Assembly: GCA_964187785.1 (NCBI GenBank)
Contig: OZ076409.1
Location: forward strand, 37,388,001-37,452,000
Length of the DNA: 64,000 bases
Source: Amphiscolops sp. MND2022
Lineage: Eukaryota
Direction of reading: 5' to 3'
Position numbers and translations under genes: made by a program. The notes below the pieces were generated by a model, which worked only from the letters and a program-made list of their open reading frames with translations, was not told the origin of the DNA and ran no database searches. Shown in pieces: positions 5,017 to 38,501 of this stretch; the first letter of the stretch is position 1; every line of letters starts with the position of its first letter.

Positions 5017-5734
5017 TGTAACGTCCACCAGTCAACACCAAATTTTCGATGAAAAATTCGATCAAGAACCAAAAAATGTGCGAATCAAAATGGCCGACCT
5101 GGCAGGTCCTTAAAGCCCATAAAATGAAAGAAGAGAGCACGTGAACAAGAGGAACGATAGGAGATAATGAAGAGAAGAGGCAAAACAACTGATGACATGA
5201 AGATCCACACGGGACAGAATACGACGAACGCTACCCGGTGCTATGTCATCCCTGAGAAAGCAGAACCATGCTAGAATGGCGTGACTGGATCCCCGAAAAT
5301 CTACAAACAGTAACTGTGTTTTCACTTGGGGCTTATCCCCTTTTGTTTTGTTAATTTATTATAATGCATTTTGTTATTTTCCCCATGTCTGACCTTCTAG
5401 GTCGGCATTTCATGCCCATAACTGTCGAAATGACATTTTTCGAATAAACACTCTTTTGGACCTCGGAAGTATGTAGGAGATGGCAGGAATACACTAAAAA
5501 CCCTAGGATACGTTTTTACAGGCTTGTGGGGCGTGTCCGGACTTTGAGAGTGCCGGCACGTCGCCTCGGAGCTCTAACTAGAGGAGCCTCCTTAGACGTT
5601 AGAAAAGTCCCCCATGGAGACCATTTTGGGATCAAAAACTAGTGTCTAGGTATGTAGTAAGACAACGGTCTCCTGTTTAAGCATCCTAGGCATTGTCCCT
5701 CTTCCTAGATGTGCGCCGCTAGCCGGACGTTACA
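5017..5734 (+). repeat. E1 5' LTR (718 bp)
   Basis: TGTAACGTCC...GGACGTTACA (10-bp terminal inverted repeat); direct repeat of 23392-24110. Confidence 0.97.
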
Positions 5735-5750: not shown

Positions 5751-5768
5751 TGGCGACCACAGAGGGAT
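5751..5768 (+). promoter_or_regulatory. E1 primer-binding site (tRNA 3' end complement, probably tRNA-Arg)
   Basis: TGGCGACCACAGAGGGAT is the complement of ...ATCCCTCTGTGGTCG-CCA and is identical in E2. The Arg assignment is inferred from resemblance to GACCAC-type Arg acceptor stems. Confidence 0.85.
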
Positions 5769-8720: not shown

Positions 8721-9170
8721 ATGGAACGACGCGAGACTAACACAACCATAAGCGACTTCCATGCCACCAACCCTTTCAGAAGAAGAACGGAAGCCACAAC
8801 CGAACAAAACGAATGTAGATTAGATTCAGCCATAGCAGCCGTATTTTCAGAAGCTATGTCTGACTTCGTACCGAGCCAGGAGCAAAACGCGGAGATAGCC
8901 GTTGCCACTAGCCAGCTTAACTCCTCGCGAGCCTCCCCCGATAGCACCAATCTACCGGATAATACTGAGAACACTACGCAAAGAAACACCTGGCCTCCGC
9001 TGGAAGTCACTGACTACAGCTTGGAAAATTGGCCTAACTCCAACCAAGGGCCCACCAGTGAGCCCAGCATCGTTGATACTCCCAACGAACAAAACGACAC
9101 TCCAATGACTCCACGGGCGGACCCACAGACGGCGGATGTCGAAAGGAACCCCCGGGTTCCCAGGAGATGA
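8721..9170 (+). CDS. E1 Gag N-terminal segment, out of frame with the main ORF
   Basis: FHATNPF, TWPPL and NWPNSN motifs match the in-frame N-terminus of E3 Gag. The stop overlaps the next ATG (ATGA at 9167-9170). Confidence 0.7.
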   Translation: MERRETNTTISDFHATNPFRRRTEATTEQNECRLDSAIAAVFSEAMSDFVPSQEQNAEIAVATSQLNSSRASPDSTNLPDNTENTTQRNTWPPLEVTDYSLENWPNSNQGPTSEPSIVDTPNEQNDTPMTPRADPQTADVERNPRVPRR

Positions 9171-12100
9171 TCAATAGCGTAGGCGGGAATCCCTTCCGAA
9201 GCGGATATGCGCTACCGGAAGCACCGGCGAAAACGTCGAACGGGCCAGTGGAGAACTCGAAGACAAACATAACAGAGAATCCGTTAAGATACGTTTTTCG
9301 AACGCCACCCTCGGTGAGACCAAAGATTAACTATGCGAATGCGAGTCGAACGTCTCATACGCCAGACTCTCAAGCTAGCGCCGACACCAATCTCGACTCA
9401 ACAATAACCAAAGCAAGGAAGGAAATGCAAACGGTTCGAGAAGACTTTCAGAGTAGTCTGGCTCAGCTAGCTCAAGTCCAGACGAGGCTGGCGAGGGAAA
9501 ACAATGAACATGAGATGCGCGCCGACATGATAATGAGAGACATGGATGAGCTGCGAAAAGGTCTGTTGGAAATGCAAGCGGAAGGGCGACAAAATCAAGG
9601 TCGACTGGAGGCGTCCATGGCATCTCTCAATGATCTGATTAAACAGAGAGGAACTACAGCAGACGCCCGCATGGCCGAGATGTCCGCAATAATGAGGGAA
9701 AGAGACCGCCAAGCAGACGAACGCATGAAAGCAATGACAAACACGATGCAGCGCCGCGACATAGACTCCAATATCCGCATGGCGGACTTAATGATGGCAA
9801 TGCAAGATTTAACATTGGGAGTGAAAGCAATTGTGTCACAAACCCCCGCGCAGCAAGCACAAACGGCGCCGCGGATTCCCCAAAAGTATCAACAAACCGA
9901 AATGCCATCTACAAGCGAAGCCCCCCAACCTCACTATAGGACGGTGGCACAGCACACCGTGGAGCCTCCTAGGCCTCCAAAACTAGTGCCACCCGCGACG
10001 TACAGGCGTGACCTGTCTAAAGCTAGCAAGATGGCTAAAGTAACCCACACGGAGTCACGAGACGCCGGTACGGACCCGATGACTGACCCGCCGTCGTTTG
10101 ACCAGTACGCTCGCGGGACATCAACCTCCGGCGACTTTCATACAGCCGCCGACGAAACGAACATCCGCAGGACCAGCTATTATACGGCCGATTCCAGCGC
10201 AGCATTCCGCCCACCTGCGCGAACGCATACGTTCAGAGACTTTGTTCCGCGGCCAGTGGCCACCAGTACGCAGCGTAAGGTGACAAACAAGCGGAATCTA
10301 GAACAAGGCAAAGGCGAACATAGCGACATTGAAGAAATGCCCTCAATGGCAGAAGAGACCCCAGACACACCGAGAACTACCCAACGACAAGCACTAGCGG
10401 AAGCAATATCTACGGCCATGTCTAAAGGCTTGGAGCCACTGCTCGCCGCCAAAGAATCTAAAAACAAGCCCACGAAATATAGAGGAACCCGCGACGGAAA
10501 CGCAGATGGATGGATGATGTTGATGAAACGCCATTTGGAAAAAGCACACCCGAAGGCGACCCCCCTCGATAAAGCATGGACAATAATTGAGTATCTAGAG
10601 CATGAAGCCAGAGATTACATCACGAATAAGTCCGAAGCCGAGAGGGACACGGACGAAAAAGTATTCGCATTGCTGGCGCGTCGCTTTGGGACAGGCTCCA
10701 GCAAGATCCACATCCAACAGCAATTTAGAACCCGCAACCAGAATAGCGAGGAGGACTACATGCAATACCTTGACGCCCTCGAAGGCTTGCGTAGTCAGGG
10801 TTACCCCAATGAAGAGGTGACAGTTCGTCGATACGAAATCATGCAAAGATTCATTGAGGGAGTACGCAACTTCGAACTAAAAAGGAACCTCGCGCTAATG
10901 TATGCACCGGAACAATACGTGGAGACCCCGCCAACAGTGGAAGCCCTCCGCTTCACGGTACAACAATACTTACGCATGCGTGGCTCCACTCGCTCGGACA
11001 ACTACCCAATGATGCCCCCTCCACAACAACAAGCCAACATCCAACAACCTAATCAATCTCCGGTAGCACCCGCGCCTGCCCAAAAAATGCAACAACAACA
11101 GCCTCCCCAACCAGCAGCATACCAACAACAACCCATGCCACCGGCAGCCTATCGACAACAACCCCAGAGGGCGTGCTTCAACTGCGGAGACCCATCGCAC
11201 TTCGTGGTGGACTGCCCCCTGAAAGACCGTGCACGGAAGCCGGTGCAACAGCAAGTGAACTCCTGTCACACGAACCCGACTGGTAGTTGGGTGTGCCCCT
11301 CCCAGCCACATGGCTTGAACTATGATGTTTTCCCAGCATCCCTGCCAACCCAAGGCACAGTTCCCTTCTGCATCAATTGCGGCCGTACTGAGCACTCGGC
11401 GTCAGAATGCATGGCCTCGGAGCAAATGAGTCACGAAGAACAAATCCGTGCAGCGTGGTATGCTCCTGCACCAAGTCAATTCGATGGCCAGAGCCAAGAC
11501 GACCAAGTCCGGGTAATATCGATAGCGGAAGATGGGGGTCCCTCCCGACCTGTAGTAGTCACTTGTGGCGAGAAACAAGTACTCACCACGCTGGAGGCGC
11601 CCGCCCCAGATTGCACAGAAACGCTTATCTCGATACACTTGCTTCTCTCGGCAGAACAAAAAACGCGACCCACGCTGACGCTATCGCAACTAAAAGAGGA
11701 ATTATGCAGAAACGTAAAATATACTATCGCAGCGCGACCGCTCCCACATTTCACGAGAGAAGACGAAACGAAGCTGGCCCCAATACAGAAAGTCAAAACC
11801 GTTTCTCCGGTGCCGGTAGCCATTAACGTAGACGGTGTAGATATGAAATTTGACGCTATCGTAGTCTTAGAAGGTCACTTCCCTCAGGGATTGTACTTGG
11901 GCCGCCAGGAGTTGCGATGTTATAACATCGGAGTGCAAGATGCCCAGGGGGAGGCTCGCATTGACGAACGAGCATCCCTGGTGGTTGCCTTTGGCAACAC
12001 GATCCAGGAACCAATACCCTTGTACGGGATGATTGACACCGGTTCCGGTGTCTCCATTCTCTCCCTCAAGGCCTATCAAAAGATTGCATCACCCCACGCC

Positions 12101-15100
12101 TTGAGCCTCCTACCATATGACATCCAACTGTATGCCGCCAATGGTAAAACCATCAACACCATCGGAATTGCCGAAAATGTTAGCTTCCAGTTGGGCGGAC
12201 ATACCCTTAGAACCAATTTCATAGTCATTGCCGATCACCTAGGTGCCGAGGACTTCTTACTTGGCAGGAACTTCTTGCGCACTTACAACGTTCTCGTGGA
12301 CCTGACGGCCATGAGGGTCACCATACGAGACCCCAAAGCGCCACGCCACTTCAAACCCGTCCATGAGGTAAGTGACCATGAGCCATCCCTAGTGATATCC
12401 ACCGAAAGAGTAGTCCTAGGCCCTTATGAGCGCAAACTGGTGCGAGCCCAAGTTATTTCTCAAAAGCACAACGAATACCTTTTCCGAAACGTAATGATTC
12501 GCCCCCAGGGGGTATATAAACGATCCCCCTTTGTCTCAGAAGATACATTGACGTCTGTTGGAGATGAAGGCATTGTCTTCATAGCCGTACGAAACACTAC
12601 CCCCTCTGAAAACGTAACCATTCAAACCAAAACTGTCCTCGGTAAGGCAGAAACTACAAACTTTGTGTTGCAACCTGTGGCTGCCGATACGGCAACCGAA
12701 ATTGATAAACCTTTGTTTGAACAAGTTAATAGAGTTTATACCGATGAGTGGTTAAACGAAACGAGTTCCGAATATAGTTCCTTTGCTCAAAATTTTTTGT
12801 CCTCTACTGAGATATCTGAAGAAGGATTGTCGGAAAGCGAGAGGCGTGCTCAGACTGACCCACAGTTACTGAAACCTATACCAGGTCCAGACCTCTCTTC
12901 TGTCCTTTCTTCATGGGGGGAGGGAGCGAGAGATCAACTAGCAAGCGTCCTGAGCGAGTACGATGATCTTTTTATGAAACATAAAGCTGACATAGGGAGA
13001 TGCAAAATAGCCAAACATCGTATAGAACTAGAGCCGGAAGCTATCCCGCATAGAGAAGGCGCTCGGCGCATGTCCCCAGATAAGGCAGCAAAGGCTAATC
13101 AAGAGGTGCGGAATTTGCTGGCCCTTGGCCTAATTCAACCCTCCTATTCACCGTGGGCAAGCGGAATAGTCATGGTCAAAAAGAAAACAGGCGAACTTCG
13201 CTTCTGCTGTGACTTCCGACCGCTCAACGACGTAACGGTCAAGGACGCGTTCCCATTGCCCAGGATTGATGAAAGTCTATCCCGGATAGGCAATGCGAAA
13301 ATTTTCACAAGTATTGACCTAGCGTGGGCCTTCTGGCAGATACCGCTAAAGAAGCGCGATAGAAGGAAAACAGCATTTGCCTGCGAACTGGGCTTGTTCG
13401 AATGGCGGCGCATGCCCTTTGGGCTATGCAATGCATCCGCCACATTTCAGCGCTCCATTACACGAGCCCTGCAACGGATCCATCAACGACACGGGAGTGT
13501 CGTCATGGCTTACATTGACGACATAGTCATCGCCACGGAAACCATAGAAGACCACATCGTACGAATCAAGGAAGTATTCGAGTGTCTCCGAGAGGCTGGA
13601 TTCAAAATGCGTGCCGAGAAATGTGATTTCATGCGCACGGAGACAAAGTACCTGGGGCGAGTGGTGTCCTCGGAAGGCATCAGACCAGACCCCGAAGCAA
13701 TAGTCAAAATCCAAGAATGGATGCCCCCGAGAAACAGAGAGGAGCTTCAGAGCTTCCTAGGGTTCGCAAACTATTACCGGGACTTTGTACCGTTTCATGC
13801 AGCCAAGGTGCAACCCCTGCAGGAGTTACTCAAGAAGAGTCAGCATTTCCACTGGGAAATAAAACACCAAGAGGCCTTCGATGCAGTAAAGGAGGCACTA
13901 GCGAATGCGACCGCCTTGGCAGCCCCAAATGAAGACGGACGGTTCGTGCTCGATACCGATGCTAGTGCGGTAGCGATAGCTGGAATCCTGCACCAGGAAC
14001 AAGAACACAATGGGAAAACTATTTTACGGCCAATAGTCTTCGGGAGCAAGTCCCTGACAAAAACGCAACTGAACTATGGAGCACCCAAGTTGGAAATGTA
14101 CGCAGTATTTTACTTCATAGAGAAATTCCATTCGTATCTCGCAGGCCGAGAGTTCACGCTCCGCGTGGACAACCAGGCCCTGTCGTGGCTCAAAACGTAC
14201 TCCATGGACCAAGCCATGATAGGTCGCTGGATAGCCCGTCTGGATCAATATAACTTCAAAACGATCCACCGACCTCGCACACAGCATCGAAACGTGGACG
14301 GCCTCAGCAAACGGACCAACGACTATGTGCACCGAGAGAAAATCCTTGAGAAGTTACCGGAAGTGAGTGAAGGATTCAACTTCATGACCAAAGAAGACTA
14401 TGAAGCACTTCCCACCGTGCCATACTTTGACAAACACGGACGCCCAATACCAAACCATCCAGAGCTCCCGCCGGAAGCTCGAGCCCAACTCCCACTGCTG
14501 TATATCTTGGGAAAAAGGCCCAAAACGAGCTTGCAAGAAACCCCAGTGAATGATGCCCCGTGGTACCCCCAAATACAGTGGGAAGCGACACCCACCACAG
14601 ATGAGGATCACCGACCGAGTCACATCCTCAGCATCACGACCGAAGTGCCACCTGCACGCCTAGACACTGGAGAACCTGATCCTGTGCTTGAAGGGATGCC
14701 ACCCGAATGCCGAAGGCAAGCCCACGCCCTTAGAACAGTCGGAACGGAGCTGCACGAACACTTTCTGACTAGACGTGGCCTCAAGGACCTGCACCTAGCA
14801 CAAAATAGGGACGTGCACCTCCTAGCGCTTAGGAAACTCATGAACGGCGAACCACTAGAAGACACAATGTTCCCCGAAGACGTGCAGGACTTCGCGCGAC
14901 GCTACTTCCATCAAAAGAAAGACCTGCTCTTCCTGAACCCAGACGACATCCTCTGCGTCAACTACGTTCCGCAACAACGTGCGCTGCACGTGCGACCGTG
15001 CATGATAGTCATGCCACAACTATACCAACACGAGATTCTGTATAGGGCACACGACGAATCGGGACATCAGGGCGTAGGGAAGGTGCTAGCAAGAGTACAA

Positions 15101-18100
15101 GAGCGACACACCTGGCCGGGCATCAAGCGTGACATAGTCAATCACATCAAGCACTGCTTAACCTGCCAGCAGACTAAACACCCCGCCGGGAACCCCTGCT
15201 ACCCCTTGCAGAACATTAACAGCAGCAATTTCAATGACCTAGTACAATTCGACCACCTCAAACTATGCAAGACCGAATCGGGAAACACCGGTCTCTTGGT
15301 AATGATAGACCACTTCACGAAATTCGCCGAAGCTGTCCCGTGTGCCCACGACGAATATGATGCTCAAACCACAGCAAAGATCATCCTTAATAAATGGTTC
15401 GCCAGGCACGGCACTCCAGCACGCATGCAGTCCGACAATGCCACGAATTTCACAGCTGAAATCGCACAAGAGCTAATGAAGGCTTCGCAAGTCACTAAAG
15501 TGACATCCACACCAGCGCATCCCCGAGGAAATGGACTCGTGGAAAGGCAGAACCGAACGTTACTCACACTGCTCAGAGTCTACACTTCGCGACGAATGCA
15601 GGATTGGGATGAGCACGTTGATGGAATCCTCGGTGCGTACAATTCAACTAGACACGCAACCACGGGATTCTCTCCCTATATGCTCCAACATGGAGCCGAA
15701 AAATCCATTCCCTTGTCGTTCATCTACCCAGAATTTGCTGCGCGAGGATTCGACTCCAAAGAGGAATTCGTAGAGCACCTTCTAGCCAGACAACAGGAAA
15801 TCCATGAACTCGTCAGAAGAAATACACACCAAGCACAGCTACGGCAAAAGCTGAAGTTTGACCGCCACCTGAAGGCCAAAGCGCACGCCGTAGGCGATGC
15901 GGTGTGGGTATTCTGCCATATCATACCCAAGGGTGGCACCCGCAAGCTGATTCGCGCATGGCGTGGACCCCACAAGGTGACTGACGTGTTGCAGGACGGA
16001 CGATTATATGTGCTAGACACTGGCCAAAAGGTCCATTACGAAAGATTAAAAAAGCACGTGCCTGCCCCTTGGGACTGGGCCGCACACCAGCCCTTTGGGC
16101 CGGATCAAAACGTAGCCATCATTGCCGATCCGTACGTAGAAGAAAGCAATGAGGAGATAGCGTCCGACATCTCTCAAGACTCTTTTCTACCGGAACAACT
16201 TCCGGAAGCATCGTTCGAAATGGAACCAACAGGATCGATTCCACCTCGTACCATTCAGACTCGTACCCAAACGGCACTCGAGCAAGGAATACCCCGAAGA
16301 AGATTCAGTCACTTCGGATACCCCTCTGACTCAGATTCCGAAAGAGAAGAAAATGAGCCGCCGATCCAGAGCCCACCACCGCCAGTAGTGTTCCCCGACT
16401 TGGACGACCTAGAACCACTGTACTCCGACCAGGAGGAAATTCAGCCAGCCGTACCTACAAGTCTGATACCATCACCCTCAGGGACCTCGGCCCCACTACT
16501 ATCCAATCCGTCCCTGACGGATACCCTGAGTAACTTTCCCTTGTTTGGCCCCCAATTGGAGGACCCAATCGACCCGATAGAAATTAAACCAAAGTCAGGA
16601 ACTGAAGACGAAGAAGAGATAACCTATCACAGTCCAAGCCATTGCTCAACACAACCCGATACCACGAATCGCAGAGGACGGCCTCGAGGCCGACCACCAG
16701 GTCGAGGACGACCCCGCGCCATACCATCCAGTAGAACCACGACATCGTCGCGAACCCAAACCGCACGATCCAGAAGAGGCCCTAGGACAAGAATGAGCAC
16801 TCGTGCACCCCCTCGAAGGCTAGACCAAGCAATGACTCTGCCAGAAATACCCGAAAGCCAACAACCACCGGAGGTCCAGAATTCAGAACCGAGACCATCA
16901 TCGCAAACATCACGATATCAACTGCGAGCTAATAGAGCACCACGATACAAGTGTGGAACCTGTGGTTCCCGCAACTGTAGTTGCGTCAAGCATCTGACTC
17001 GCGATTCACCGGACAACCGATTGGCCCGGGGAGCGGTAGTCCCTGCCAGGGATCTCCTGATAGCCAGGACACATTGTCACCCACAACATGAGATCTTAAC
17101 CGTACAAGCCCAGCGAGAAAAAGTGGAGACACCCCCGCTAGTACACCATTTGATCATCACGGTAGAAAAAACTTTCACTAGTGTGGAACGGGAAGTGATA
17201 CCACCGCTCGAAGAAACACAAATAGCAATGCACGCGACATCTCCCTCCGACTGCCCAACTTACCGATTCAAGGAATGGACACCACCCCATCGAGGCGGTC
17301 TAGAATTCACCCTACATGCCATCATACCGCCCTTGCCACCCTCGATGACGTTCGGCGAGCTAGCGAAAGAGGATAGTAGCACGGAGATGATTCGCTGTAT
17401 CACTGCACACCAACTGTGGGAGAAATATCGCATTGCCTCCCCGCCGGGAGACATATACCAGCCCACCAATGGATGGTGGCTACTCGTCACCTCTCTAGAC
17501 GCAACGACATTGGTATCCCCCACAACTCTATTAATGTGCTTAGAAAGCTTGCGTACTGTAACAGAACCCGAGAACACGCTCTGTTTCCACATGGCCGACA
17601 TTTATCGTGGCAAGTTCCTAAGCCAACATTGGCTACAATTAATAGCGGTCATCTTCTGCCGACAGGCGAAGATACACTTCTTGGATCGACAATCTTATAC
17701 ACCGGAAAAACCCGTCACAGTTAGCGAAGCACTCTCGATAGTACACGATTGGTCATCTACCAACATGGGAGATAGACCGCTACGCCGAACCGTCTGGGAA
17801 GACCGAAAAGCAATCTTGCAGCATTTAGCACCCCAACCCACTGATGATCAGAGCAATACCACCGGCAAATGGCTCATAACCCAGCCCAAAACCAGACCGA
17901 ATTACCTACCTTGGATAACTTATGACAATACAGATATCCTGCAGGCACCTGGCACTCTGATACTATGCTGCCCTGCGGATTTGCTCTCTTACTCTGCCAC
18001 GATCCGTTACGTTATTCGCGAATACGGTCAAGAAAACATATTTCGCCTAAGACCGTCAGTTGGCACCGCAATTCGCTTAGTCCGCTCGCCAACTGCACCC

Positions 18101-18388
18101 TGGAATAACGAAATCTTCCTTCTATGTACCAGAGCATCGAACAAGCATCCACTCTTACATGAAGTACTCCATGCGTGTCTGACAAATTTGATAACCCAGC
18201 TCCATCGAAACCACATTACCAGAATCCACTTGCCCATCTATGATCCCGAGCGATCGATGAACCTCCTACCAGCCTGGTACGCCACGCTACGCGACCACTT
18301 TGCAGACCACAATATTGCAATAATTTTGCACGATCGCGTCTATGTCACGATAGCATCGGTTACCTCAGCCAATTTTGGCGGTAGTTAA
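9167..18388 (+). CDS. gag-pol: E1 Gag-Pol polyprotein (3073 aa): capsid, 2x CCHC, pseudo-protease + protease, RT, RNase H, integrase, long C-terminal tail
   Basis: CFNCGDPSHFVVDC and CINCGRTEHSASEC knuckles; MIDTGSG and LLGRNFL protease motifs; MPFGL and YIDD RT motifs; DTDAS/KLEMYA/RVDNQAL RNase H; HHCC, D..D(35)E and WRGPH integrase motifs. Confidence 0.96.
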   Translation: MINSVGGNPFRSGYALPEAPAKTSNGPVENSKTNITENPLRYVFRTPPSVRPKINYANASRTSHTPDSQASADTNLDSTITKARKEMQTVREDFQSSLAQLAQVQTRLARENNEHEMRADMIMRDMDELRKGLLEMQAEGRQNQGRLEASMASLNDLIKQRGTTADARMAEMSAIMRERDRQADERMKAMTNTMQRRDIDSNIRMADLMMAMQDLTLGVKAIVSQTPAQQAQTAPRIPQKYQQTEMPSTSEAPQPHYRTVAQHTVEPPRPPKLVPPATYRRDLSKASKMAKVTHTESRDAGTDPMTDPPSFDQYARGTSTSGDFHTAADETNIRRTSYYTADSSAAFRPPARTHTFRDFVPRPVATSTQRKVTNKRNLEQGKGEHSDIEEMPSMAEETPDTPRTTQRQALAEAISTAMSKGLEPLLAAKESKNKPTKYRGTRDGNADGWMMLMKRHLEKAHPKATPLDKAWTIIEYLEHEARDYITNKSEAERDTDEKVFALLARRFGTGSSKIHIQQQFRTRNQNSEEDYMQYLDALEGLRSQGYPNEEVTVRRYEIMQRFIEGVRNFELKRNLALMYAPEQYVETPPTVEALRFTVQQYLRMRGSTRSDNYPMMPPPQQQANIQQPNQSPVAPAPAQKMQQQQPPQPAAYQQQPMPPAAYRQQPQRACFNCGDPSHFVVDCPLKDRARKPVQQQVNSCHTNPTGSWVCPSQPHGLNYDVFPASLPTQGTVPFCINCGRTEHSASECMASEQMSHEEQIRAAWYAPAPSQFDGQSQDDQVRVISIAEDGGPSRPVVVTCGEKQVLTTLEAPAPDCTETLISIHLLLSAEQKTRPTLTLSQLKEELCRNVKYTIAARPLPHFTREDETKLAPIQKVKTVSPVPVAINVDGVDMKFDAIVVLEGHFPQGLYLGRQELRCYNIGVQDAQGEARIDERASLVVAFGNTIQEPIPLYGMIDTGSGVSILSLKAYQKIASPHALSLLPYDIQLYAANGKTINTIGIAENVSFQLGGHTLRTNFIVIADHLGAEDFLLGRNFLRTYNVLVDLTAMRVTIRDPKAPRHFKPVHEVSDHEPSLVISTERVVLGPYERKLVRAQVISQKHNEYLFRNVMIRPQGVYKRSPFVSEDTLTSVGDEGIVFIAVRNTTPSENVTIQTKTVLGKAETTNFVLQPVAADTATEIDKPLFEQVNRVYTDEWLNETSSEYSSFAQNFLSSTEISEEGLSESERRAQTDPQLLKPIPGPDLSSVLSSWGEGARDQLASVLSEYDDLFMKHKADIGRCKIAKHRIELEPEAIPHREGARRMSPDKAAKANQEVRNLLALGLIQPSYSPWASGIVMVKKKTGELRFCCDFRPLNDVTVKDAFPLPRIDESLSRIGNAKIFTSIDLAWAFWQIPLKKRDRRKTAFACELGLFEWRRMPFGLCNASATFQRSITRALQRIHQRHGSVVMAYIDDIVIATETIEDHIVRIKEVFECLREAGFKMRAEKCDFMRTETKYLGRVVSSEGIRPDPEAIVKIQEWMPPRNREELQSFLGFANYYRDFVPFHAAKVQPLQELLKKSQHFHWEIKHQEAFDAVKEALANATALAAPNEDGRFVLDTDASAVAIAGILHQEQEHNGKTILRPIVFGSKSLTKTQLNYGAPKLEMYAVFYFIEKFHSYLAGREFTLRVDNQALSWLKTYSMDQAMIGRWIARLDQYNFKTIHRPRTQHRNVDGLSKRTNDYVHREKILEKLPEVSEGFNFMTKEDYEALPTVPYFDKHGRPIPNHPELPPEARAQLPLLYILGKRPKTSLQETPVNDAPWYPQIQWEATPTTDEDHRPSHILSITTEVPPARLDTGEPDPVLEGMPPECRRQAHALRTVGTELHEHFLTRRGLKDLHLAQNRDVHLLALRKLMNGEPLEDTMFPEDVQDFARRYFHQKKDLLFLNPDDILCVNYVPQQRALHVRPCMIVMPQLYQHEILYRAHDESGHQGVGKVLARVQERHTWPGIKRDIVNHIKHCLTCQQTKHPAGNPCYPLQNINSSNFNDLVQFDHLKLCKTESGNTGLLVMIDHFTKFAEAVPCAHDEYDAQTTAKIILNKWFARHGTPARMQSDNATNFTAEIAQELMKASQVTKVTSTPAHPRGNGLVERQNRTLLTLLRVYTSRRMQDWDEHVDGILGAYNSTRHATTGFSPYMLQHGAEKSIPLSFIYPEFAARGFDSKEEFVEHLLARQQEIHELVRRNTHQAQLRQKLKFDRHLKAKAHAVGDAVWVFCHIIPKGGTRKLIRAWRGPHKVTDVLQDGRLYVLDTGQKVHYERLKKHVPAPWDWAAHQPFGPDQNVAIIADPYVEESNEEIASDISQDSFLPEQLPEASFEMEPTGSIPPRTIQTRTQTALEQGIPRRRFSHFGYPSDSDSEREENEPPIQSPPPPVVFPDLDDLEPLYSDQEEIQPAVPTSLIPSPSGTSAPLLSNPSLTDTLSNFPLFGPQLEDPIDPIEIKPKSGTEDEEEITYHSPSHCSTQPDTTNRRGRPRGRPPGRGRPRAIPSSRTTTSSRTQTARSRRGPRTRMSTRAPPRRLDQAMTLPEIPESQQPPEVQNSEPRPSSQTSRYQLRANRAPRYKCGTCGSRNCSCVKHLTRDSPDNRLARGAVVPARDLLIARTHCHPQHEILTVQAQREKVETPPLVHHLIITVEKTFTSVEREVIPPLEETQIAMHATSPSDCPTYRFKEWTPPHRGGLEFTLHAIIPPLPPSMTFGELAKEDSSTEMIRCITAHQLWEKYRIASPPGDIYQPTNGWWLLVTSLDATTLVSPTTLLMCLESLRTVTEPENTLCFHMADIYRGKFLSQHWLQLIAVIFCRQAKIHFLDRQSYTPEKPVTVSEALSIVHDWSSTNMGDRPLRRTVWEDRKAILQHLAPQPTDDQSNTTGKWLITQPKTRPNYLPWITYDNTDILQAPGTLILCCPADLLSYSATIRYVIREYGQENIFRLRPSVGTAIRLVRSPTAPWNNEIFLLCTRASNKHPLLHEVLHACLTNLITQLHRNHITRIHLPIYDPERSMNLLPAWYATLRDHFADHNIAIILHDRVYVTIASVTSANFGGS

Positions 18389-18719
18389 GAACACGTCTCG
18401 CTCTCTTCTTGGCAGATCAGGCCACTGGCCTTTTGCATTGCCTTTCGTAATTTTGAAGCGCCTTAAAATTTTAACAAAGCCGCGCCGATAAGCGCAAATT
18501 TTAGTAATAATCACTAGAAACTTTTTAACCTCGTATTTGTGTGTTCGTCCTAAAAAGTTTGACTGCCCACCCGTTTATGTAATGTTTTATCTCCAACTGT
18601 GACTTGTTTTTCAGTTTTGTCCTGTTGCCTCGCCTCTGCGCGGCCCCCCTACTTATCACGCCAAATCAGTCTTGCCATCACAATCTTCGGTGCTAAATAT
18701 TCCTTTATCATCGTTTCCA

Positions 18720-21700
18720 ATGGACCCATCTGCGCGACACCGCCTGCCTACACCCCAGAACGCTGCGCGTGCCCAACCATCCATAAGGAACGATCCACCT
18801 CCAATGATGAGCGAAATAGATGGTCGAGTCGACCAACTAGCTCTTGTCCAAGACACTCTACTAAACGGAGTGACACCCACAATGATCGCTGGCTTTGCCA
18901 TGATCATCGCCCAAACCCAAGCCCAGGCAGAGTACCCTGATGTTAGCTTCACCATCACCAGCCGAGTCGGCCCGATAGAACGCTCTGCCACTTTTCGCGA
19001 CGGTACCTGGCAAGGGTATGACTTGACCCACAGCCTCATAGATCCTCGCTCCCACTTAGTCTATGGAGAGCCTACTAGGCCTCCCATGGACCAAGAACGA
19101 TCACTCCGCATTTCACAATCAGCACTACAGACGCAAACTACGACCCCGTTGCCCTCACCGCACCCGGTGCAATTCAGCTGCACACTGCCAATCATGCCAC
19201 CCCCAGTGCTAACACCGCCCATGCCCCTGGCTTCGGAAGGCATTCGATTACTCACCACCCCATCTTCTACCTTCATGCCTCCATCTACCTTTCAGGGGGG
19301 AGGGGTGCAAGTAGACAATACAACAAGTGCTGCCCTGAGCGAAGAACAGCCCAGGAGAACGGTGACGTTCAAGGACTCATATGAAGAATTAACTCAAACG
19401 TCCTCCAGAACCGAATCACAAGTCTCGGAACCTCTACAAGTCTCAGAACCGGCCAGTCTAGTAGGCTTCCAAATGGACCCACAATTCCGAGAACGTCAGC
19501 GAGAACAACAAAAGGCTGAAAGTAAGGCGGCCAACACTGTGGTAGACCTCCGGGAGAAAATTAAAGCTGGAAAGCGAGCCAGAGAGGCAACCACGCAAAG
19601 TAGACAATCGAGCTCGACCAGTATCTCGCAACCCACGTCTACCTCACCCACACAACCAGAAATAAGGAGACCTAGAATAACGCACGAACTCCTAACACAT
19701 ACAGAAAAACGGCAGCTGGATATCACTGCACGCGACGCACTGCGTCTCCAGCGGGAAATACCAACCACAACGTCACCAGAAGACCCTCTACGACAGAAAT
19801 TCGAGATCGCTACGGGAACTGGGGACCTCGCCACAAGGCAGAAAATAGAGAAAGCCACAGTGGGAGTACTCTACAATCGCCCCGTCAAGAAACCCGTGTT
19901 TACTCGAGACGGATGCCCCCCATGGTTTAACCGCATGCGAGCAGAACTGGAGAGAGTAAACTCATCATACATGCGTGTTCCTGACAACTTCCTCCGACAG
20001 CGCCCTGGCCGCTTCGACGAAGACCGCTTGCGAACTAAAAACTATGCGAGGGACCCCATTACAATCCTGCCCATGGGAAAGGACCTTTTACAGAAAACCA
20101 GAATAGCCTTCTTCGTCGACTCGACGATGAAGTCTTCATTCAACTCCCACAATACCCTCATGGACGTCAGAATACTGAATATGCCCTGTACAACACTGAA
20201 CGAAATGGCAGAGGTGACCGATAAAATATTCACCCAAGCGGGAACAGAGACTATCCCACTACCTCCGTTGTTAGTATATTCGAATGTGATAGACCACCTC
20301 GCTCTGCGAGGGACCCTGGAATTCTTCCGGCCAGACCATGAAAGGTTTACCGAGGGGTTCATCACCGACGAAGTTACCAACTACGTGGAGACGATGGCGA
20401 ATATTGCCCAAGCTATGCGCAGAAGGAAAGCTACCACTGGAACGGTATTTATGTCACCTCCAGGCTACGTGCACCTTCCCCGGACCCTTCAGCAATTCTT
20501 GTACCTAATAATGGAGGCAGCGTACGCAAGGGATCTGGCTTTCTACATTGTGGCCCCTAATTTACGCATCAGCAATAATAGCTGGCGCCCCTGTGAAGCC
20601 TCATACCCAGCCTTCATTGCTGAAGTCTCAAAGGCCCTTCAATCATACGTCGGTTACCGCGGCAATTCCCAAATGGTGGCAGATGAAGCAACAGCATTCG
20701 ATTATGGGATGGAAATGGCTCGTCGATCATTGAACGAGCGTGGAGACCGAATCGTGAATGATCCAAATGAAAGTGAACGCAATAACCTGGTGGATAACCT
20801 CTGGTTTGAACGCCGGGACGAATCGACTATAGACGAGAAAACGCATGAGCCCAAGTTCCACAAGGAACTCACGAGTCTGATGAAGGAAACCGAAACGATT
20901 CAAAGTGATAGAAAAAATTCCTCTATCTTCCCTATAGCACAAATATCATTGGACGCGGAACCTGGGCAAAGATCACCCACATTAGCCATGTTGTTGATAC
21001 TAGCTCAAGATATTGTACGAAGAAATATTCAAGAGCCGACACACACGTACCAAACATGGCACGATCAACTACGAGAACCTCTGGGCCAAGTCGCGGATCG
21101 ACTAGGCATAACATTTCCCGTATTTCTCCACAATATCTCTCCCTTCTGGCTTCCTTCCCTGGTACAGGCCGAGTACGGCCTGGATGAGCAGCGAATGCGA
21201 CTATACATGGAGGCCATGGAAAGAGCGACCGTTAGTGAAGTGCTAGCGTATCTGATGGCCGTGGGGTTGACCATGATGTACCGAGGACCGTCAGCCCTCA
21301 TACAAAAGTTCGTGCTCAACAAGGGAGGCTCAGCCCTGTTCAGCTTCCTAGTCTTTTCGCAGAATCAAAGAAGTTGGATATCTGCGCTCATTGAAACTCT
21401 GGACCCAGCGGGTTCCTTAAAGTTAAAAGCGCAACTAAACTTAAACATTCAAGCACTTCTAGTGTGGATTTACTCCACCTGGGTCAATGTCTCTGGCATT
21501 ATGCATCCTCTGGATGAGTGCCCAGCTATTAACCGAGACCCCAATCAGCTTCCAGGGTTCCTGTTCCCTGCACAAATTGCAACGTTGATGCTCGTGGAGA
21601 CAGAGGACCTGATACCCCTCATTGCTCCTGTGATCTGGCCTATCTTCGGCGCAGTTATGGCCCTGCGCTATCCAACGCAGGCCCTGCGAGTGGCAGCGGT

Positions 21701-22805
21701 GAGCCCATCCCTCTCGATTCTACACTTCGTGACCTCTAATGGGCCCCTTCAGGGTCCCACCTATCAATCAGTGATACACAGCTTTGCCAACTTGCGACCT
21801 CCCATGGCATACACCGTAATCAAAGACCGCCAACAAGTGGAGCACAACTATCTTACGTTGATCAAGGCGCGAGCACGCAGCTCGCTCCCTTTGCCAATGG
21901 AAATCCACCCGGTAGTTTGGCTACATACCCCCCTCAATCCAAATAATGGAGCAGTGGCGACGTTTGACGGGTGGGACGTGCCAATTGTCCTGCGTATCTT
22001 GAGAGCAATTATCCAAAGATTGGGTGGTCGTAGAAAAGGAGAAGAACCTACTAGGTTATTATATCCCTATGCGTGTGACACTTCCAGAGTATATTGTGCA
22101 AGAACAGAACCCCGTGAGCATACCGCCAGAATCTTAAATACCATTACGTGTTGGGCCCAGCCAGAACTCGTGGACCTCGCTATACACCAGACCTTCCAAC
22201 AGCTGCCAACAACCATTCCAACAGTAGCAAAAGAACCAAGCAGGAAAGATTTGCCCGTGAATACTGACGTTCGCAGCAACCCGCGTATGGCGCTAGAGAT
22301 ATTCGTACGTCTGCATGGTCTCCAGCGAGAACGCACTCGAGCTGTGGGCGAAGAATACGCTAGGGGAAAACGAACGTTCAAACAACTATTCACCCAATAT
22401 GGTCACCAAGAATTAGCGGACGGCCTGCCGAACTTGGAGTCAATCGAAGCCATCCCAGGGATCAGCGATTTGAGCGAAGCTGCCTCTGGCAGCTCTCGCA
22501 CCGTCCTTCCCACACCCCACATCATTCAAGACACCGATGAATTATTGGTGGAAGGGGTACAAGATGATGTGCCAAGCGTCATGCCACCATCAGAGGAACC
22601 TATGACTGACAACAACTTCACGCTCTCTGATGCCACTACTCCTGTAAGAGACGAAGTGGAGACCAATATCTTGAACATGGAGGCAGCGGACATAGAGTCA
22701 GAGCTCAACAACTTACTGACCATAGATGAAGAATACCAAAATACGGTGAACGCCATGGGCAGCACCTCCATGCAAGAAGCCCCACAGAACCAGCTGTTGG
22801 AGTAA
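18720..22805 (+). CDS. E1 ORF2 (~1360 aa from ATG): extra ORF with SGNH/GDSL-hydrolase-like domain, function unknown
   Basis: Intact 4-kb ORF between pol and the 3' LTR, with clear homologues in E2 and E3. Motifs IAFFVDST / VRILNMPCTTLNEM / LLVYSNVIDHL / VFMSPP. Confidence 0.85.
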   Translation: MDPSARHRLPTPQNAARAQPSIRNDPPPMMSEIDGRVDQLALVQDTLLNGVTPTMIAGFAMIIAQTQAQAEYPDVSFTITSRVGPIERSATFRDGTWQGYDLTHSLIDPRSHLVYGEPTRPPMDQERSLRISQSALQTQTTTPLPSPHPVQFSCTLPIMPPPVLTPPMPLASEGIRLLTTPSSTFMPPSTFQGGGVQVDNTTSAALSEEQPRRTVTFKDSYEELTQTSSRTESQVSEPLQVSEPASLVGFQMDPQFRERQREQQKAESKAANTVVDLREKIKAGKRAREATTQSRQSSSTSISQPTSTSPTQPEIRRPRITHELLTHTEKRQLDITARDALRLQREIPTTTSPEDPLRQKFEIATGTGDLATRQKIEKATVGVLYNRPVKKPVFTRDGCPPWFNRMRAELERVNSSYMRVPDNFLRQRPGRFDEDRLRTKNYARDPITILPMGKDLLQKTRIAFFVDSTMKSSFNSHNTLMDVRILNMPCTTLNEMAEVTDKIFTQAGTETIPLPPLLVYSNVIDHLALRGTLEFFRPDHERFTEGFITDEVTNYVETMANIAQAMRRRKATTGTVFMSPPGYVHLPRTLQQFLYLIMEAAYARDLAFYIVAPNLRISNNSWRPCEASYPAFIAEVSKALQSYVGYRGNSQMVADEATAFDYGMEMARRSLNERGDRIVNDPNESERNNLVDNLWFERRDESTIDEKTHEPKFHKELTSLMKETETIQSDRKNSSIFPIAQISLDAEPGQRSPTLAMLLILAQDIVRRNIQEPTHTYQTWHDQLREPLGQVADRLGITFPVFLHNISPFWLPSLVQAEYGLDEQRMRLYMEAMERATVSEVLAYLMAVGLTMMYRGPSALIQKFVLNKGGSALFSFLVFSQNQRSWISALIETLDPAGSLKLKAQLNLNIQALLVWIYSTWVNVSGIMHPLDECPAINRDPNQLPGFLFPAQIATLMLVETEDLIPLIAPVIWPIFGAVMALRYPTQALRVAAVSPSLSILHFVTSNGPLQGPTYQSVIHSFANLRPPMAYTVIKDRQQVEHNYLTLIKARARSSLPLPMEIHPVVWLHTPLNPNNGAVATFDGWDVPIVLRILRAIIQRLGGRRKGEEPTRLLYPYACDTSRVYCARTEPREHTARILNTITCWAQPELVDLAIHQTFQQLPTTIPTVAKEPSRKDLPVNTDVRSNPRMALEIFVRLHGLQRERTRAVGEEYARGKRTFKQLFTQYGHQELADGLPNLESIEAIPGISDLSEAASGSSRTVLPTPHIIQDTDELLVEGVQDDVPSVMPPSEEPMTDNNFTLSDATTPVRDEVETNILNMEAADIESELNNLLTIDEEYQNTVNAMGSTSMQEAPQNQLLE

Positions 22806-23355
22806 GGGAGTCCTCTGGACCCCCAAGACTGTTAGAACACAATTGAGCATAAAAGACCTTATCATCAAGGTACTGATGCCAACTCTTGATTTTAGTTGTG
22901 CTACACCATCTTACTGGTGCTGAAAACTTTCAGTGCAATAAACCTTGATTTCTGAGTTTTGTTTGATGTATATTTTACTATGCTACCAATGCAACAATGC
23001 AATATAGCTACATCCTCTGGGCAGGTCCCGGTTCGGTGCCCTCCCGTTTTGATTTGAATTTAAAACTTCTACTAAGCCCAAAAGTTGTTGTTACTCACTT
23101 GGCCGCGCAGGGGCCCAATTTTAAAGAAAGAAATTTTAACTTGAACTGAGTGATTAGTGAAAAAACCTTTTTTTTAAAAAAAATCCGACTGTATAGTTTT
23201 TAACCTAAAAATCAGTGCTTTTTGAATTTGATGGCTTTGGAGTGCTAAACATGCAGTAGCGAAACGAAAGGAATAGTAATGTGAAATCAACATAATCTTG
23301 ATGTAAGACCTTTCCTGTAAATCTCAGAGTACCCTTTGGGTGCGAGCATCCTCTC

Positions 23356-23391
23356 GTTTGCCGAGGACGACAAACTACGGCCCGGGGAGGA
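23356..23391 (+). promoter_or_regulatory. E1 pre-LTR hairpin and short polypurine tract
   Basis: GTTTGCCG-AGGA-CGACAAAC stem-loop, then CCCGGGGAGGA abutting the TG of the 3' LTR; nearly identical in E3. Confidence 0.75.
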
Positions 23392-24110
23392 TGTAACGTC
23401 CACCAGTCAACACCAAATTTTCGATGAAAAATTCGATCAAGAACCAAAAAAATGTGCGAATCAAAATGGCCGACCTGGCAGGTCCTTAAAGCCCATAAAA
23501 TGAAAGAAGAGAGCACGTGAACAAGAGGAACGATAGGAGATAATGAAGAGAAGAGGCAAAACAACTGATGACATGAAGATCCACACGGGACAGAATACGA
23601 CGAACGCTACCCGGTGCTATGTCATCCCTGAGAAAGCAGAACCATGCTAGAATGGCGTGACTGGATCCCCGAAAATCTACAAACAGTAACTGTGTTTTCA
23701 CTTGGGGCTTATCCCCTTTTGTTTTGTTAATTTATTATAATGCATTTTGTTATTTTCCCCATGTCTGACCTTCTAGGTCGGCATTTCATGCCCATAACTG
23801 TCGAAATGACATTTTTCGAATAAACACTCTTTTGGACCTCGGAAGTATGTAGGAGATGGCAGGAATACACTAAAAACCCTAGGATACGTTTTTACAGGCT
23901 TGTGGGGCGTGTCCGGACTTTGAGAGTGCCGGCACGTCGCCTCGGAGCTCTAACTAGAGGAGCCTCCTTAGACGTTAGAAAAGTCCCCCATGGAGACCAT
24001 TTTGGGATCAAAAACTAGTGTCTAGGTATGTAGTAAGACAACGGTCTCCTGTTTAAGCATCCTAGGCATTGTCCCTCTTCCTAGATGTGCGCCGCTAGCC
24101 GGACGTTACA
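23392..24110 (+). repeat. E1 3' LTR (719 bp)
   Basis: Matches the 5' LTR except for one extra A in a homopolymer (by eye). Confidence 0.97.
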
Positions 24111-25622: not shown

Positions 25623-26355
25623 TGTAGCGATTACCTATCGAGTACACGATTTCGAAAATTTCGATGAAAATTTCGTTCAAGGGACTATATCCCCTCTGCT
25701 GAAAAGTCATATTCCGCTGGACGGTAGCGTGTCTTTATTCAAATACCTGCCCATAGAATTGAAGAGAATTTGAGCAGAGACTCGAGAGAGACCCCAACCG
25801 AACGAGAAGACTGCAGAAAAACACGGCCGCTGTCAGAAAAAGACTCAAATTTCTGTCAAAACGGACTGAACTTTATTCTAGCCAGTGCTTTCTTCAGCGA
25901 AGCGTTACAAGACGCTGTGATTACCGAAAATGAGTCAATTAGCTTGACCAAGCATCCGTGCTTGTGTCCCCGGCTAATTGCTGCCTCAAAAGTGCTAATT
26001 ATGTAGTAATTTTCGTATTTTCTTGTTGTAACAGCTCGTGAGCTACTCATTTCGATCTCCTGTGTAATTTCGAAAAAACTTGATTTTTCCTTTCCACCAC
26101 TTGCATTTTTTAAAGGCTGTCTAAGTGTTGGTTTCGAAGAAAAAGCGTAATGCGCACTACTGATAGCAATTACAGACTGGATCAGGCCGGCGAGCACTTC
26201 TTAAGAAGCGGAATCCTCCTCTGACGGGACATTTCTTACCCGAAGGAGGCAAAATGGACTCATGGCCATGGGCGCCTGTCCCGGGCAAATACCCATGCCA
26301 TGTGTTCCTCCTGCTCTTATGGTTACGGCGACAATGGTGAGAGCTTGTCGTTACA
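25623..26355 (+). repeat. E2 5' LTR (733 bp)
   Basis: TGTAGCGA...TCGTTACA; direct repeat of 44099-44831. Confidence 0.97.
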
Positions 26356-26371
26356 TGGAGAACACATTTTA

Positions 26372-26389
26372 TGGCGACCACAGAGGGAT
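26372..26389 (+). promoter_or_regulatory. E2 primer-binding site
   Basis: TGGCGACCACAGAGGGAT, identical to the E1 PBS and also 16 nt from the LTR end. Confidence 0.85.
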
Positions 26390-34700: not shown

Positions 34701-37700
34701 CCCACGCATGCTGCTAACGTACCATCAAGAACCACTTATCCACTGACGGAAAAGCAAGCAACCAGCACTGCACCAGAGCACGTAAAACAAGCCGCGTTTG
34801 TGGTAAACAGCATATCGATGGAATTACATGAACATGCTAACACAATCCATGGGTTGAAAGATCTACTACTAGCACAAAACCGTGACGTCCATATATTGGC
34901 TATCAAGAAATTGGTAATGCAAGAATCAATAGATCATGACATCTTTCCGGAAAATGTACGTGCCTTTGCCAAAAACTACCACAAACAGAAGAAGAACCTT
35001 CTACTAATAAACGCCAACGGGATTTTGTGTGTAAAGTATTCCAAAAGTCAAAGAGCTTTGCATGAACGCCCCTGCATGATAGTAATGCCACAATTGTATC
35101 AGCATGAAATACTATTCAAGGCCCACGACGCGATGGGACATCAGGGCATCGCGAAAGTCTTGGCCAGAATTCAAGAGCGCCACACTTGGCCAGGCATCCG
35201 CCGCACCATGGGACAATACGTCAGCCAATGCATCACTTGTCAACAAGTACGTGACAAGCCTGGTGATGTACGCTTTCACTTGAAAAATATCCAAAGCGGC
35301 TATTTCAACGAGCTAGTCCAATATGACCACATGAAAATTTGTCCCTCTGATGATGGTAACACAGGGATCTTGGTTATTATCGATCATTTCTCTAAGCTCG
35401 CAGAAGCTGTGCCGTGCAACCACGATGAGTATGATGCAGCGACCACTTCAAAGTTGTTGTTGCAGAAATGGTTTGCCCGCCATGGAACGCCGACGAGGAT
35501 GCAGTCAGACAATGCTCCCAACTTCACCGCGGCAGTGTCTGCTGAGTTTATGAAAGCCGCCCAAGTGACCAAAGTAACCTCAACTGCTGGCCACCCCAGG
35601 ACTCAAGGGTTGGTAGAGCGACAAAACCGAACGTTACTCACCCTACTGCGTGTATTCTGCTCTAGACGAATGCGTGATTGGGACCAGTACTTAGATGAAG
35701 TCATGGGTGCATACAACTCCACACGTCATGCCACTACTGGGTTCTCCCCGTATATGCTGACTAGAGGCATGGAAAAAGCTATACCCCTGACTTTCTTGTA
35801 TCCCGAATTTGCAACTCAGTCATTCGAATCACACGAAGCCTATGTGGAACATGTGCTGGCTCGACAACAAGAGATTCATGACTTAGTCCGTCGTAACACG
35901 CATCAAGCCCAGCAGCGACAAAAGTTGAAGTACGACAGAGCAATTCGTGCTAAAGCCTATGAAGTGGGCGAACCTGTTTGGGTATTCTGCCGATACATTC
36001 CTCAAAATGGATCTCCTAAATTAATGAGAGCGTGGCGTGGTCCTCACAAAGTAGCACGAGTACTACAAGAGGGACGCGTCTACATACTTGACACTGGTCA
36101 GAAAGTACATTTCGAACGATTGAAACCGCACCATGGTGGTCCAACAGAATGGGCAGCTGTTCCTGCGCATAACGGCGAGGTTGCTATTATCATGGACCCT
36201 GATCCAGAACAATCCCACGAGGAGGTGAGAGACGATGCTTCGCAACCTTCTTATCGTGCAGAGGAACCAATTTCAGAAGCCAGTAATGCCTCTTTGCCTT
36301 CTCGACAAAGACATTGGATGGACACACGGTTACGCACACACATGCGCGCAGGTGGCAGCCGCCTACATTATCAACAATTTGGCTATTCTTCGACTGAGTC
36401 TGACGATGAACGTTCTGATGTACTCCTGTCGAGTGTTCAGGCTAGTCCTGATGAGAGTGCTATCTTGTCATCACATGTAGATGAACCTGCGCCTATTCCC
36501 GAAATGCCAATATCACCACTGCCTGATATGGAGGCTCTATTCTCAGAGAATGAAGCAGTACCCGACGTATTGGACATCGCCCCGAATCCTACTATCCACG
36601 CACCCACCGAAAGTGCCGGCACCTCTCTGACCGGTACATCCGCCCCATTATTGACAAATCCATCTCTTACGGATATGTTGAGTAACTTTCCCATTTGGCC
36701 CCTAATCGATGACAGTGTTCTCAACCCAACCTTAGACGACAACGGTGCTGAAACACCAACGACCAATGACGAAAAGGGATCTATTCCCCCTGCGACAGTT
36801 CCCACCAACAACAACGCAGCTACTACCACGAAACTCTCCAATGCTCCTAGAGGGCATGGACCGCGGGGACGTCCGCCAGGCAGAGCGAGGCCGCGAGCCT
36901 CGCTGCCACGTGGCCACCAACAGAGAGGTGCTATTAGAGGCGCTCGCAAAAGAGGCCGTCCCAGAGGAAGACCTCCTCGTACAACACACGCCAGACCTAA
37001 CATCTCTACCCGTGTTCGTAGCACTCCATCTATGGACACTGACTCTTCTGCCCCTAGCGCAGCGGTTACCTCAGATCAAGCAGCACCATCAAAATCAACC
37101 AACGCTCGCTATGGACTGCGACGCAATCGTATTCCCAGATATCGTTGCGGGACATGTGGCCTACGAGACTGCGGATGCAACTACATGGTCCACGCGGGCT
37201 TCCCAATTAAACCCCGGGGAGTCCTGCTAGCACGTGAACAGGAGAAACCGCTTCCAAGCGGCACCGTTGACCGTTTGGTTATTCGAGCCGAGAAGACTTA
37301 TACTGGGCTACAACGCAGCGACACTCCATATCCTGTGGACTATATCCTATCCAAAATGAAAGATTCTACGATAGCAAAGGCCCCGTGCCCAAGGTTCAAG
37401 GAGTGGACCTATGATCTTATTGGTTTGGAATTCACATTACCTATCACTGTTCCCCCCTTGCCTACAAATATTGCTTTTGGTCCTTTCAACTATGAACGAG
37501 AGCCTATCCAAAGGGTACGCTGTATTCCTGCTGACCTTTTGTATGACAAGTACAACGTCACCGCAAAACCAGGAGACGTTTATCAGCCTGCAACCAACTG
37601 GTGGCTACTAATTACGGCCAAACAAGTATCCGACCTGGTTCATCCCACTAACTTGAACACCTGTCTGGAGAGTTTGCGGACGATGACCTCTCCTGATAGA

Positions 37701-38501
37701 ATCACTTGTTTCCACACCATAGACCTATATCGTGGTAAAATTAAGTTTGAATGGTGGCTGGAACTTATTATAGCAGTCTTATCGAACTTTTCACGAATCA
37801 GATTCCTGGACGAATGGACACACTCTTTTCCTAGTCCTGTATCACTCCAATCAGCCCTGCACGCACTGGATACATGGTCCAGGGCTAACATTGATAATCA
37901 ATCGTTGCCGCGATCTGTGTGGCAAGACTTGGGCGCCATTAAAGGCCTCCTCCCGAACGCATGTAACGATGCTCTCTCCAAAGACCCCGGACGAGAATTA
38001 GTATACCATGGAGCCGTGAGACCTCAATTGGTTGACTATGTGCGGTATGCCAATACGGACTTCCTGCAGACTCCCCATCACATTGTTTTATGTTGTCCCG
38101 CAAACCTAGAAACTAATTCTGCCGCTCTTCGTTACGTCATTCGTGAGCATGGTGCAGATGCAATCTTTCAACTTCGACCGGAGGTTGGCAATATTGTAAC
38201 GCTACCCACATCTTTGATAGACGGCCATCCTCAGACTATCCACCTTTTAATCACACGAGCTACACCTCGCTGCCCTATGCTCGCTGATATTCTCTTTGGA
38301 TGTCTTGATCATTTGAAAACGTTACTCGAGCGCCTAGAGGCGATAGAAGTACACTTTGCCATCATTGATCCTGAGCGCCCAATACGTAATCTTTTCGATT
38401 TTTATACCTGTTTGATGGACGTATTCGCTGACACCCCCCTGACCGTCGTTCTTCACGATCGCGTTTACGTATCTATTGCAAGCGTCGCTAGCTTTCCGTA
38501 G
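28736..38501 (+). pseudogene. gag-pol: E2 gag-pol, disrupted (stop at 30296-30298, frameshifts near 30434 and ~34620)
   Basis: ORFs 28583-30298, 30538-34671 and 34623-38501 together are collinear with E1 Gag-Pol (2x CCHC, LIDTGSG, YIDD, DTDAS, HHCC/DDE, GRP repeats, CGTCG, C-terminal LHDRVYVSIASV). Confidence 0.9.

Follow-up and report, generated by a model that had tools for sequence, protein, structure and literature searches.

Human TARG1 (OARD1, C6orf130; PDB 4J5R, 4J5S and 2L8R) gave the best profile and structure match to the domain described here. Its catalytic dyad comprises Lys84 and Asp125 (PMC9411070, PMC7050489). The changes G123E and G43E abolish ADP-ribose binding and catalysis in TARG1, while RNA binding is kept (PMC5928194). 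The related SCO6735 is active without the equivalents of Lys84 and Asp125 (PMC9411070, PMC7050489), and much of its activity is lost upon G128E, the equivalent Gly-to-Glu change (PMC9411070). The phosphate-loop glycine is retained by each of the four homologues that the same source compares (PMC9411070). Repeated loss of activity is known among macrodomains (PMC10221186).

Capture of macrodomains by retroelements is also already known. Teleost endogenous retroviruses carry macro-domain ORFs (Basta et al. 2009, as cited in PMC4977317). Unlike the arrangement described below, the macrodomains of these epsilon-like retroviruses are encoded by additional ORFs (PMC4977317). The SUD of SARS (SUD-N and SUD-M) comprises two macro folds in tandem within a viral polyprotein, and these fail to bind ADP-ribose (PMC2674928). 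The chromodomain of chromoviruses is likewise a borrowed domain, placed at the C-terminal end of a Gypsy Pol (PMC12440569). The usual target duplication of Ty3/Gypsy elements is 4-6 bp, and 3 bp has been described for Troyka (PMC12440569). In the literature covered, which included PMC3597677 but few subscription journals and no Repbase Reports, we found no case of a Gypsy integrase carrying a TARG1-type domain.

The window (the whole stretch of DNA analysed, 64,000 nucleotides from Amphiscolops sp. MND2022) contained three related Gypsy-type LTR elements, E1, E2 and E3. The pol frame was interrupted by frameshifts in E2 and by stops and frameshifts in E3. The features referred to below are as follows.

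5017-24110, plus strand: E1, whole element
5017..5734, plus strand: 5′ LTR of E1, with TG...CA ends; the 3-bp duplication GAT lies just before it
9077..18388, plus strand: Gag-Pol ORF of E1, 3103 aa, with knuckles, protease, RT, RNase H, integrase and tail
15014..15985, plus strand: integrase, with H2C2 zinc domain, core and a GPY/F-like motif at 15959
16673..16714, plus strand: three overlapping Gly-Arg-Pro cores in the integrase tail (motif), which we take to be AT-hook-like
16952..16984, plus strand: four-cysteine motif, Cx2Cx4CxC
17339..17701, plus strand: M1, an upstream and more eroded tandem copy of the M2 fold (HHalign to M2; AlphaFold model)
17702..17899, plus strand: two-helix linker from M1 to M2 (AlphaFold model)
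17900..18340, plus strand: M2, the flagged feature, a TARG1/ALC1-class pseudo-macrodomain at the C-terminal end of Gag-Pol (profile, AlphaFold model, Foldseek, VIA)
17933..17935, plus strand: Asp equivalent to TARG1 Asp20, presumably at the adenine end of the pocket
18131..18133, plus strand: Arg replacing the catalytic Lys84
18242..18256, plus strand: remodelled phosphate-binding loop, with Asp in place of G121, Pro of C122, Glu of G123 (18248-18250), Arg of L124 and Ser of D125
18603..22805, plus strand: ORF2 of E1, 1400 aa
23392..24110, plus strand: 3′ LTR of E1, 99.86% identical to the 5′ LTR; GAT lies just after it
25623-44831, plus strand: E2, with LTRs at 25623-26355 and 44099-44831 and the 3-bp duplication GTG
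37461..38498, plus strand: M1 and M2 of E2
46998-47722, minus strand: 3′ LTR of E3
52737..53786, minus strand: M1 and M2 of E3

The preliminary description had placed a TARG1/OARD1-type macrodomain at the C-terminus of the integrase protein (17910-18350). The residues it read were indeed encoded there, in frame 9077-18388, and the counterparts that it claimed in E2 (38037-38460) and E3 (52800-53225, minus strand) were present, with 45% and 71% identity to E1. Simple searches did not reveal the fold. Neither the single sequence of M2 nor a three-sequence profile gave a macro match in the PDB, and none was found by the Pfam scan (0/48 family members) or the NCBIfam search. A search of cluster representatives then yielded 183 relatives, 150 of which were used further. 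When a profile of 48 sequences (relatives plus window copies) was built, human TARG1/C6orf130 entries were the only ones with E <0.5, and the best of them matched over the whole domain (E 2.5e-14). We also modelled M1 and M2 with AlphaFold from a 107-row alignment that comprised family sequences only, and the model reached a pLDDT of 87; the single-sequence model (pLDDT 35) was unusable. Foldseek placed TARG1 first for the M2 model (E 3.4e-8, TM 0.84). VIA aligned 137 residues to TARG1 with Z 17.8 and rmsd 2.1 Å at 19% identity; Z was 14.9 for DarG, 12.7 for yeast Poa1p and 12.4 for SCO6735, which share the fold class of M2. M2 therefore belongs to the TARG1/OARD1-type (ALC1-like) macrodomain fold class, as the preliminary description had proposed; the outcome named there as refuting it, profile and structure searches without a macro fold, did not occur. 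In the ESM Atlas, which we used as a lead only, the nearest clusters were unnamed viral ones (0.91), and the first named cluster was PF01661 (0.89).

A probable second copy of this fold, M1, lies upstream of M2 and had been overlooked. Over about 120 residues, M1 aligned to M2 by HHalign at 95.9% (E 6e-9, score 54.8), whereas none of 60 column shuffles scored above 20.3 and the reversed control scored 15.7. M1 had a pLDDT of 78-97 in the two-domain model; its first ligand-binding loop/helix is about 14 residues shorter. Searched by structure within the two-domain model, M1 gave Z of only 6.2-6.7, to aminopeptidase N-terminal domains; its direct HHalign to the intact-site domains of other Gypsy elements (see below) was 2.5%, below significance, and the ESM Atlas returned nothing above 0.79. 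No M1 was found in the available sequence of the distant members P0167, P0182 and P0232, all of which are fragments. Because of these members, the duplication was probably limited to one branch.

The pocket of M2 is altered across the family. We numbered its positions after human TARG1 by the family profile alignment, which agrees with G43, I44, G123, K84 and D125 as given in PMC5928194 and PMC9411070. Residues were counted in 160 domain rows from 150 of the 183 representatives; many of these come from decayed fragments, M1 may account for a few of the rows, and each denominator is the number of rows with a residue at that column. M2 retains the TARG1 residues Asp20 (72/86 rows), Cys33, Asp37, Thr83 and Pro118. 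Lys84 was replaced by Arg in 87/104 rows and kept in two, and the Asp125 position was mostly Pro, Gly or Ser, with Asp not among the residues listed for its 86 rows. The catalytic dyad is thus absent from the family. The glycine-rich loops (G43; G121-x-G123) were not kept either. G43 was replaced by Ala in 78/103 rows (Gly in 2/103), G121 by Asp in 79/88 (Gly in 2/88) and G123 by Glu in 58/87, and the eight rows with Gly at the last position were distant single-domain members. S35 had become Pro in 75/96 rows and L124 Arg in 81/86. The preliminary description had already noted that Lys is changed to Arg and that the glycine loop is replaced, and both changes extend across the family.

Because the pocket residues are replaced, including by the Glu of the binding-dead TARG1 G123E, we infer that M2 has probably lost catalysis and, slightly less surely, ADP-ribose binding. 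DarG, SCO6735 and Poa1p keep the phosphate-loop glycine and are active (PMC9411070), whereas M2 mostly has Glu there. It had been suggested that M2 may be a binding-only module, one that continues to recognise ADP-ribose and could direct integration to ADP-ribosylated chromatin or protect the element against PARP-based defence. The TARG1 fold at 2.1 Å and the retained Asp20 equivalent are in keeping with this idea; so are the intact-site domains of other Gypsy lineages, which imply that ADP-ribose matters to such elements, and the leaning of insertions towards non-repetitive DNA. However, both glycine loops are changed, the Glu is that of the standard binding-dead TARG1 control (PMC5928194), and M1 in addition lacks part of loop 1. 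On these residues (G123 to Glu in 58/87 rows, G121 to Asp in 79/88), ADP-ribose reading by M2 seems quite unlikely.

The old pocket might instead have acquired another ligand. Conservation in M2 is among the highest at R119 (94%), D116 (90%), R79 (84%) and the equivalent of Asp20 (84%), and these residues line the pocket as those of a remodelled ligand site would. A conserved Arg/Asp/Arg set could bind a phosphate-bearing ligand or a nucleic-acid end, such as the RNA or cDNA of the element, or the domain could be a non-canonical hydrolase. There are precedents for both: TARG1 G123E still binds RNA (PMC5928194), SUD binds G-quadruplexes through lysine-rich surfaces (PMC2674928) and SCO6735 catalyses without the dyad (PMC9411070). 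M1 and M2, unlike SUD, are neutral to acidic. The net charge of M2 ranged from -9 to +5, whereas 15 of the 20 domains with intact sites had +8 to +15; this speaks against a surface that is generally basic and binds nucleic acid. M2 also differs from TARG1 in not being basic. Moreover, the Pro, Asp and Glu of the phosphate loop would be expected to repel phosphates. The conserved charges could also pair with one another and thereby close the pocket. We therefore regard a rebuilt ligand site as somewhat unlikely. The structural match to SUD was weak (Z 7.6); the two tandems are likely of separate origin, and SUD serves as an analogy.

Both domains are under purifying selection. In the only pair of subfamilies with unsaturated synonymous sites, dN/dS was 0.10 for M1, 0.07 for M2, 0.01 for RT and 0.22 for the linker. 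In six other pairs, synonymous sites were mostly saturated and M2 was still 46-73% identical. Among 29 E1-like copies, pN/pS was 0.17 for M1 and 0.20 for M2. The divergence of M2 was much faster than that of RT or of the integrase core (46-82% versus 68-99% identity). A terminal-domain search of the 1.07-Gb genome gave at least 3504-4248 first-look candidates, and the best 121-150 were scored. Many of the scored copies sat in open frames of more than 3000 aa, and the domain was free of stops in 150/150 top copies. No copy occurred in 600 kb of arbitrary genome stretches, which served only as background.

These values bear on two further explanations. One is that the tandem has no function and persists in frame as a relic. 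The catalytic residues are gone, and many database members of the family are decayed fragments (one from a distant member, P0230, is joined to an RNase H piece). Nevertheless, persistence of M2 at 46-73% identity beyond synonymous saturation, dN/dS of 0.07-0.10, the lack of domain stops in the top copies and the confidently modelled fold largely refute this explanation, which we consider highly implausible. The purifying selection instead supports the suggestion that M2 is a repurposed module. The other is that M1 and M2, once released from Pol, have a role apart from integration, as a decoy, a protein-binding counter-defence factor or a particle scaffold. Positive selection was not seen at the domain level (dN/dS about 0.1) and the neighboring motifs look DNA-binding; we regard this explanation as quite unlikely.

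These neighboring motifs lie just before M1, in a tail that extends Pol 808 residues beyond the GPY/F-like motif. One to three AT-hook-like cores were found in 11/11 family ORFs but in only 1/14 ORFs with intact-site domains, and the four-cysteine motif, a possible zinc site, in 11/11 versus 0/14. The fold, the tandem duplication, the fusion with integrase in one ORF, the family-wide pocket changes and the purifying selection are all observed. As their best explanation we tentatively propose, at slightly less than an even chance, that M1 and M2 form a docking module which likely neither cuts nor binds ADP-ribose and which helps to tether integrase to a host chromatin partner. Judging from the anatomy, an ancestral element might have captured an active TARG1-like domain, the pocket might then have been rebuilt around the conserved Arg and Asp residues, and the domain would later have been duplicated in one branch. 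The closed tandem, together with the AT-hook-like and four-cysteine motifs, would act as a tether that docks on the host partner. Several observations weigh against this proposal: the best-conserved residues line the old pocket, SCO6735 is active without the dyad, distant single-domain members have Gly at position 123, and M2 diverges much faster than RT or the integrase core.

Chromoviruses target heterochromatin. The preliminary description had put the macrodomain in the position of their chromodomain, which holds insofar as both occupy the Pol C-terminus. No chromodomain was found at the integrase C-terminus in the Pfam scan; a macro fold stands there. However, M1 and M2 differ from the chromodomain in fold and in ending a tail of about 800 residues, and insertions of the family were neither enriched in repeats nor clustered. 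Repeat hits occurred at 4/27 insertion sites and 112/300 background sites (Fisher P = 0.02), and GC content was 0.358 at insertion sites against 0.387 in the 600-kb background (P = 0.002). The first 80 distinct copies on large contigs were spread uniformly along the chromosomes (KS P = 0.84), with no clustering at centromeres or telomeres, and thus no strong targeting was seen. The mild insertion bias is in keeping with a tether but could be due to the AT-hook-like motifs, to the integrase itself or to post-insertion selection. Its weakness, measured on only 27 sites and the 600-kb background, counts against a tether. Nothing in the site data directly links these features to the macrodomains.

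The elements showed the protease-RT-RNase H-integrase order, the GPY/F-like motif and the TG...CA LTRs of Ty3/Gypsy (Metaviridae), but not the usual duplication of 4-6 bp. After one segmental duplicate was dropped, 31 sites of the E1 and E2 subfamilies remained, and the duplication was 3 bp at 27 of them, 4 bp at one and absent at three. In a separate comparison, five of six elements had 3 bp, the sixth being the 4-bp site. Duplications of 3 bp on TG...CA elements occurred in at least six subfamilies (in the window at 5014-5016/24111-24113 and 25620-25622/44832-44834; elsewhere at L205-L304). Comparatively, four of six controls from other Gypsy lineages had 4-5 bp, one was unclear and one had no LTR pair. 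The 3-bp duplication is shared with Troyka (Kuafuorterviruses), another animal LTR element. We nevertheless rejected membership of Troyka, which has CG...CG ends, LTRs of 100-400 bp, an internal part below 7.7 kb, a longer knuckle (CX2CX8-10HX4C) and no GPY/F (PMC12440569), whereas E1-type elements have TG...CA ends, LTRs of about 720 bp, an internal part of 17.7 kb and a GPY/F-like motif, and their knuckle is of the standard kind. The combination of TG...CA ends with 3 bp breaks the usual 4-6-bp rule (PMC12440569), which would matter for repeat annotation and integrase geometry.

Other Gypsy elements of the same genome carry a canonical TARG1-like domain. A genome search with Pfam Macro gave 1441 candidates, and the canonical domain matched TARG1 with E 1.2e-27. 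We fetched 20 loci (L167-L186; for example C12:44821589, C9:45008581, C10:23513386 and C3:87409791). The domain was at the integrase C-terminus in 15, in the RNase H-integrase gap in one, upstream of RNase H and apparently before RT in one, and near the end of an 834-aa ORF in three. M2 aligned to these intact-site domains by HHalign at 95.8-97.5%. K84, G43, G123 and D125 were each retained in 18/20. The two exceptions at K84, G123 and D125 were L168 and L172, which have Glu at 123; their RTs are close to that of the intact L167, and the same Gly-to-Glu change occurred on a separate branch. The Arg/Glu family to which M2 belongs formed one clade both in the RT tree (14 rows, 100/100) and in the domain tree (20 rows, 100). 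In these unrooted trees, whose rows included no named references, it stood at a large distance from the intact group with C-terminal domains. It may represent a separate capture or an ancient common origin. The intact-site domains are likely active erasers and a better target for the PARP idea.

A wider scenario, which we regard as unlikely, is that Gypsy elements in this animal lineage have been in a long conflict over ADP-ribose. TARG1-type erasers would have been captured into at least four polyprotein positions and their pockets lost repeatedly through Gly-to-Glu changes. In the giant lineage with 3-bp duplications, which would be an undescribed clade, the dead fold would have become a tandem reader that steers integration, and so a macro fold would play the part that the chromodomain has in chromoviruses. 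In any case, one genome holds a natural series of mobile elements, with intact TARG1-like domains at one end and dead but conserved ones at the other. This series makes it testable whether ADP-ribosylation restricts animal retrotransposons, and what the macro fold does after its pocket has closed. Despite its thousands of candidate sites here (the 3504-4248 first-look sites), the M2 family is invisible to Pfam. It likely spans other hosts, because the best matches of three distant representatives in this genome reach only 22-36%. No locus of the family turned up when metagenome and viral contigs were scanned.

Several minor observations were made on the elements. The 834-aa ORFs (L181, L182 and L186) belong to a multi-copy family whose macrodomain has an intact site and which matches a protease weakly; no RT was found within 10 kb of them, and the family is possibly non-autonomous. 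ORF2 had no match in Pfam, NCBIfam or the PDB. An SGNH-type esterase had been suggested by eye for its core (about 20040-20900), from what we take to be an SGNH-like motif, and was rejected since none of these databases supported it. An ORF2 of at least 400 aa was absent from two of the six full elements fetched (C12:16.93 Mb and C9:42.48 Mb). The leader of E1 (5735-9076, 3.3 kb) runs from the 5′ LTR to the gag frame, and its sole ORF has 218 aa (8514-9170). With spacings of 1.5 kb between E1 and E2 (24110-25623) and 2.2 kb between E2 and E3 (44831-46998), these 19-kb-class elements form a local cluster, in contrast to the 600 kb of arbitrary stretches, where the domain had no copy. A pair of inverted repeats, 71% identical (4457-4878 and 44832-45240), lies on the outside flanks of E1 and E2. 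The usual spacing of the primer site from the LTR is 1-3 bases; a primer-site-like octamer (5735-5758 and 26356-26379) begins 15-16 bases inward of the LTR end in every subfamily that was seen.
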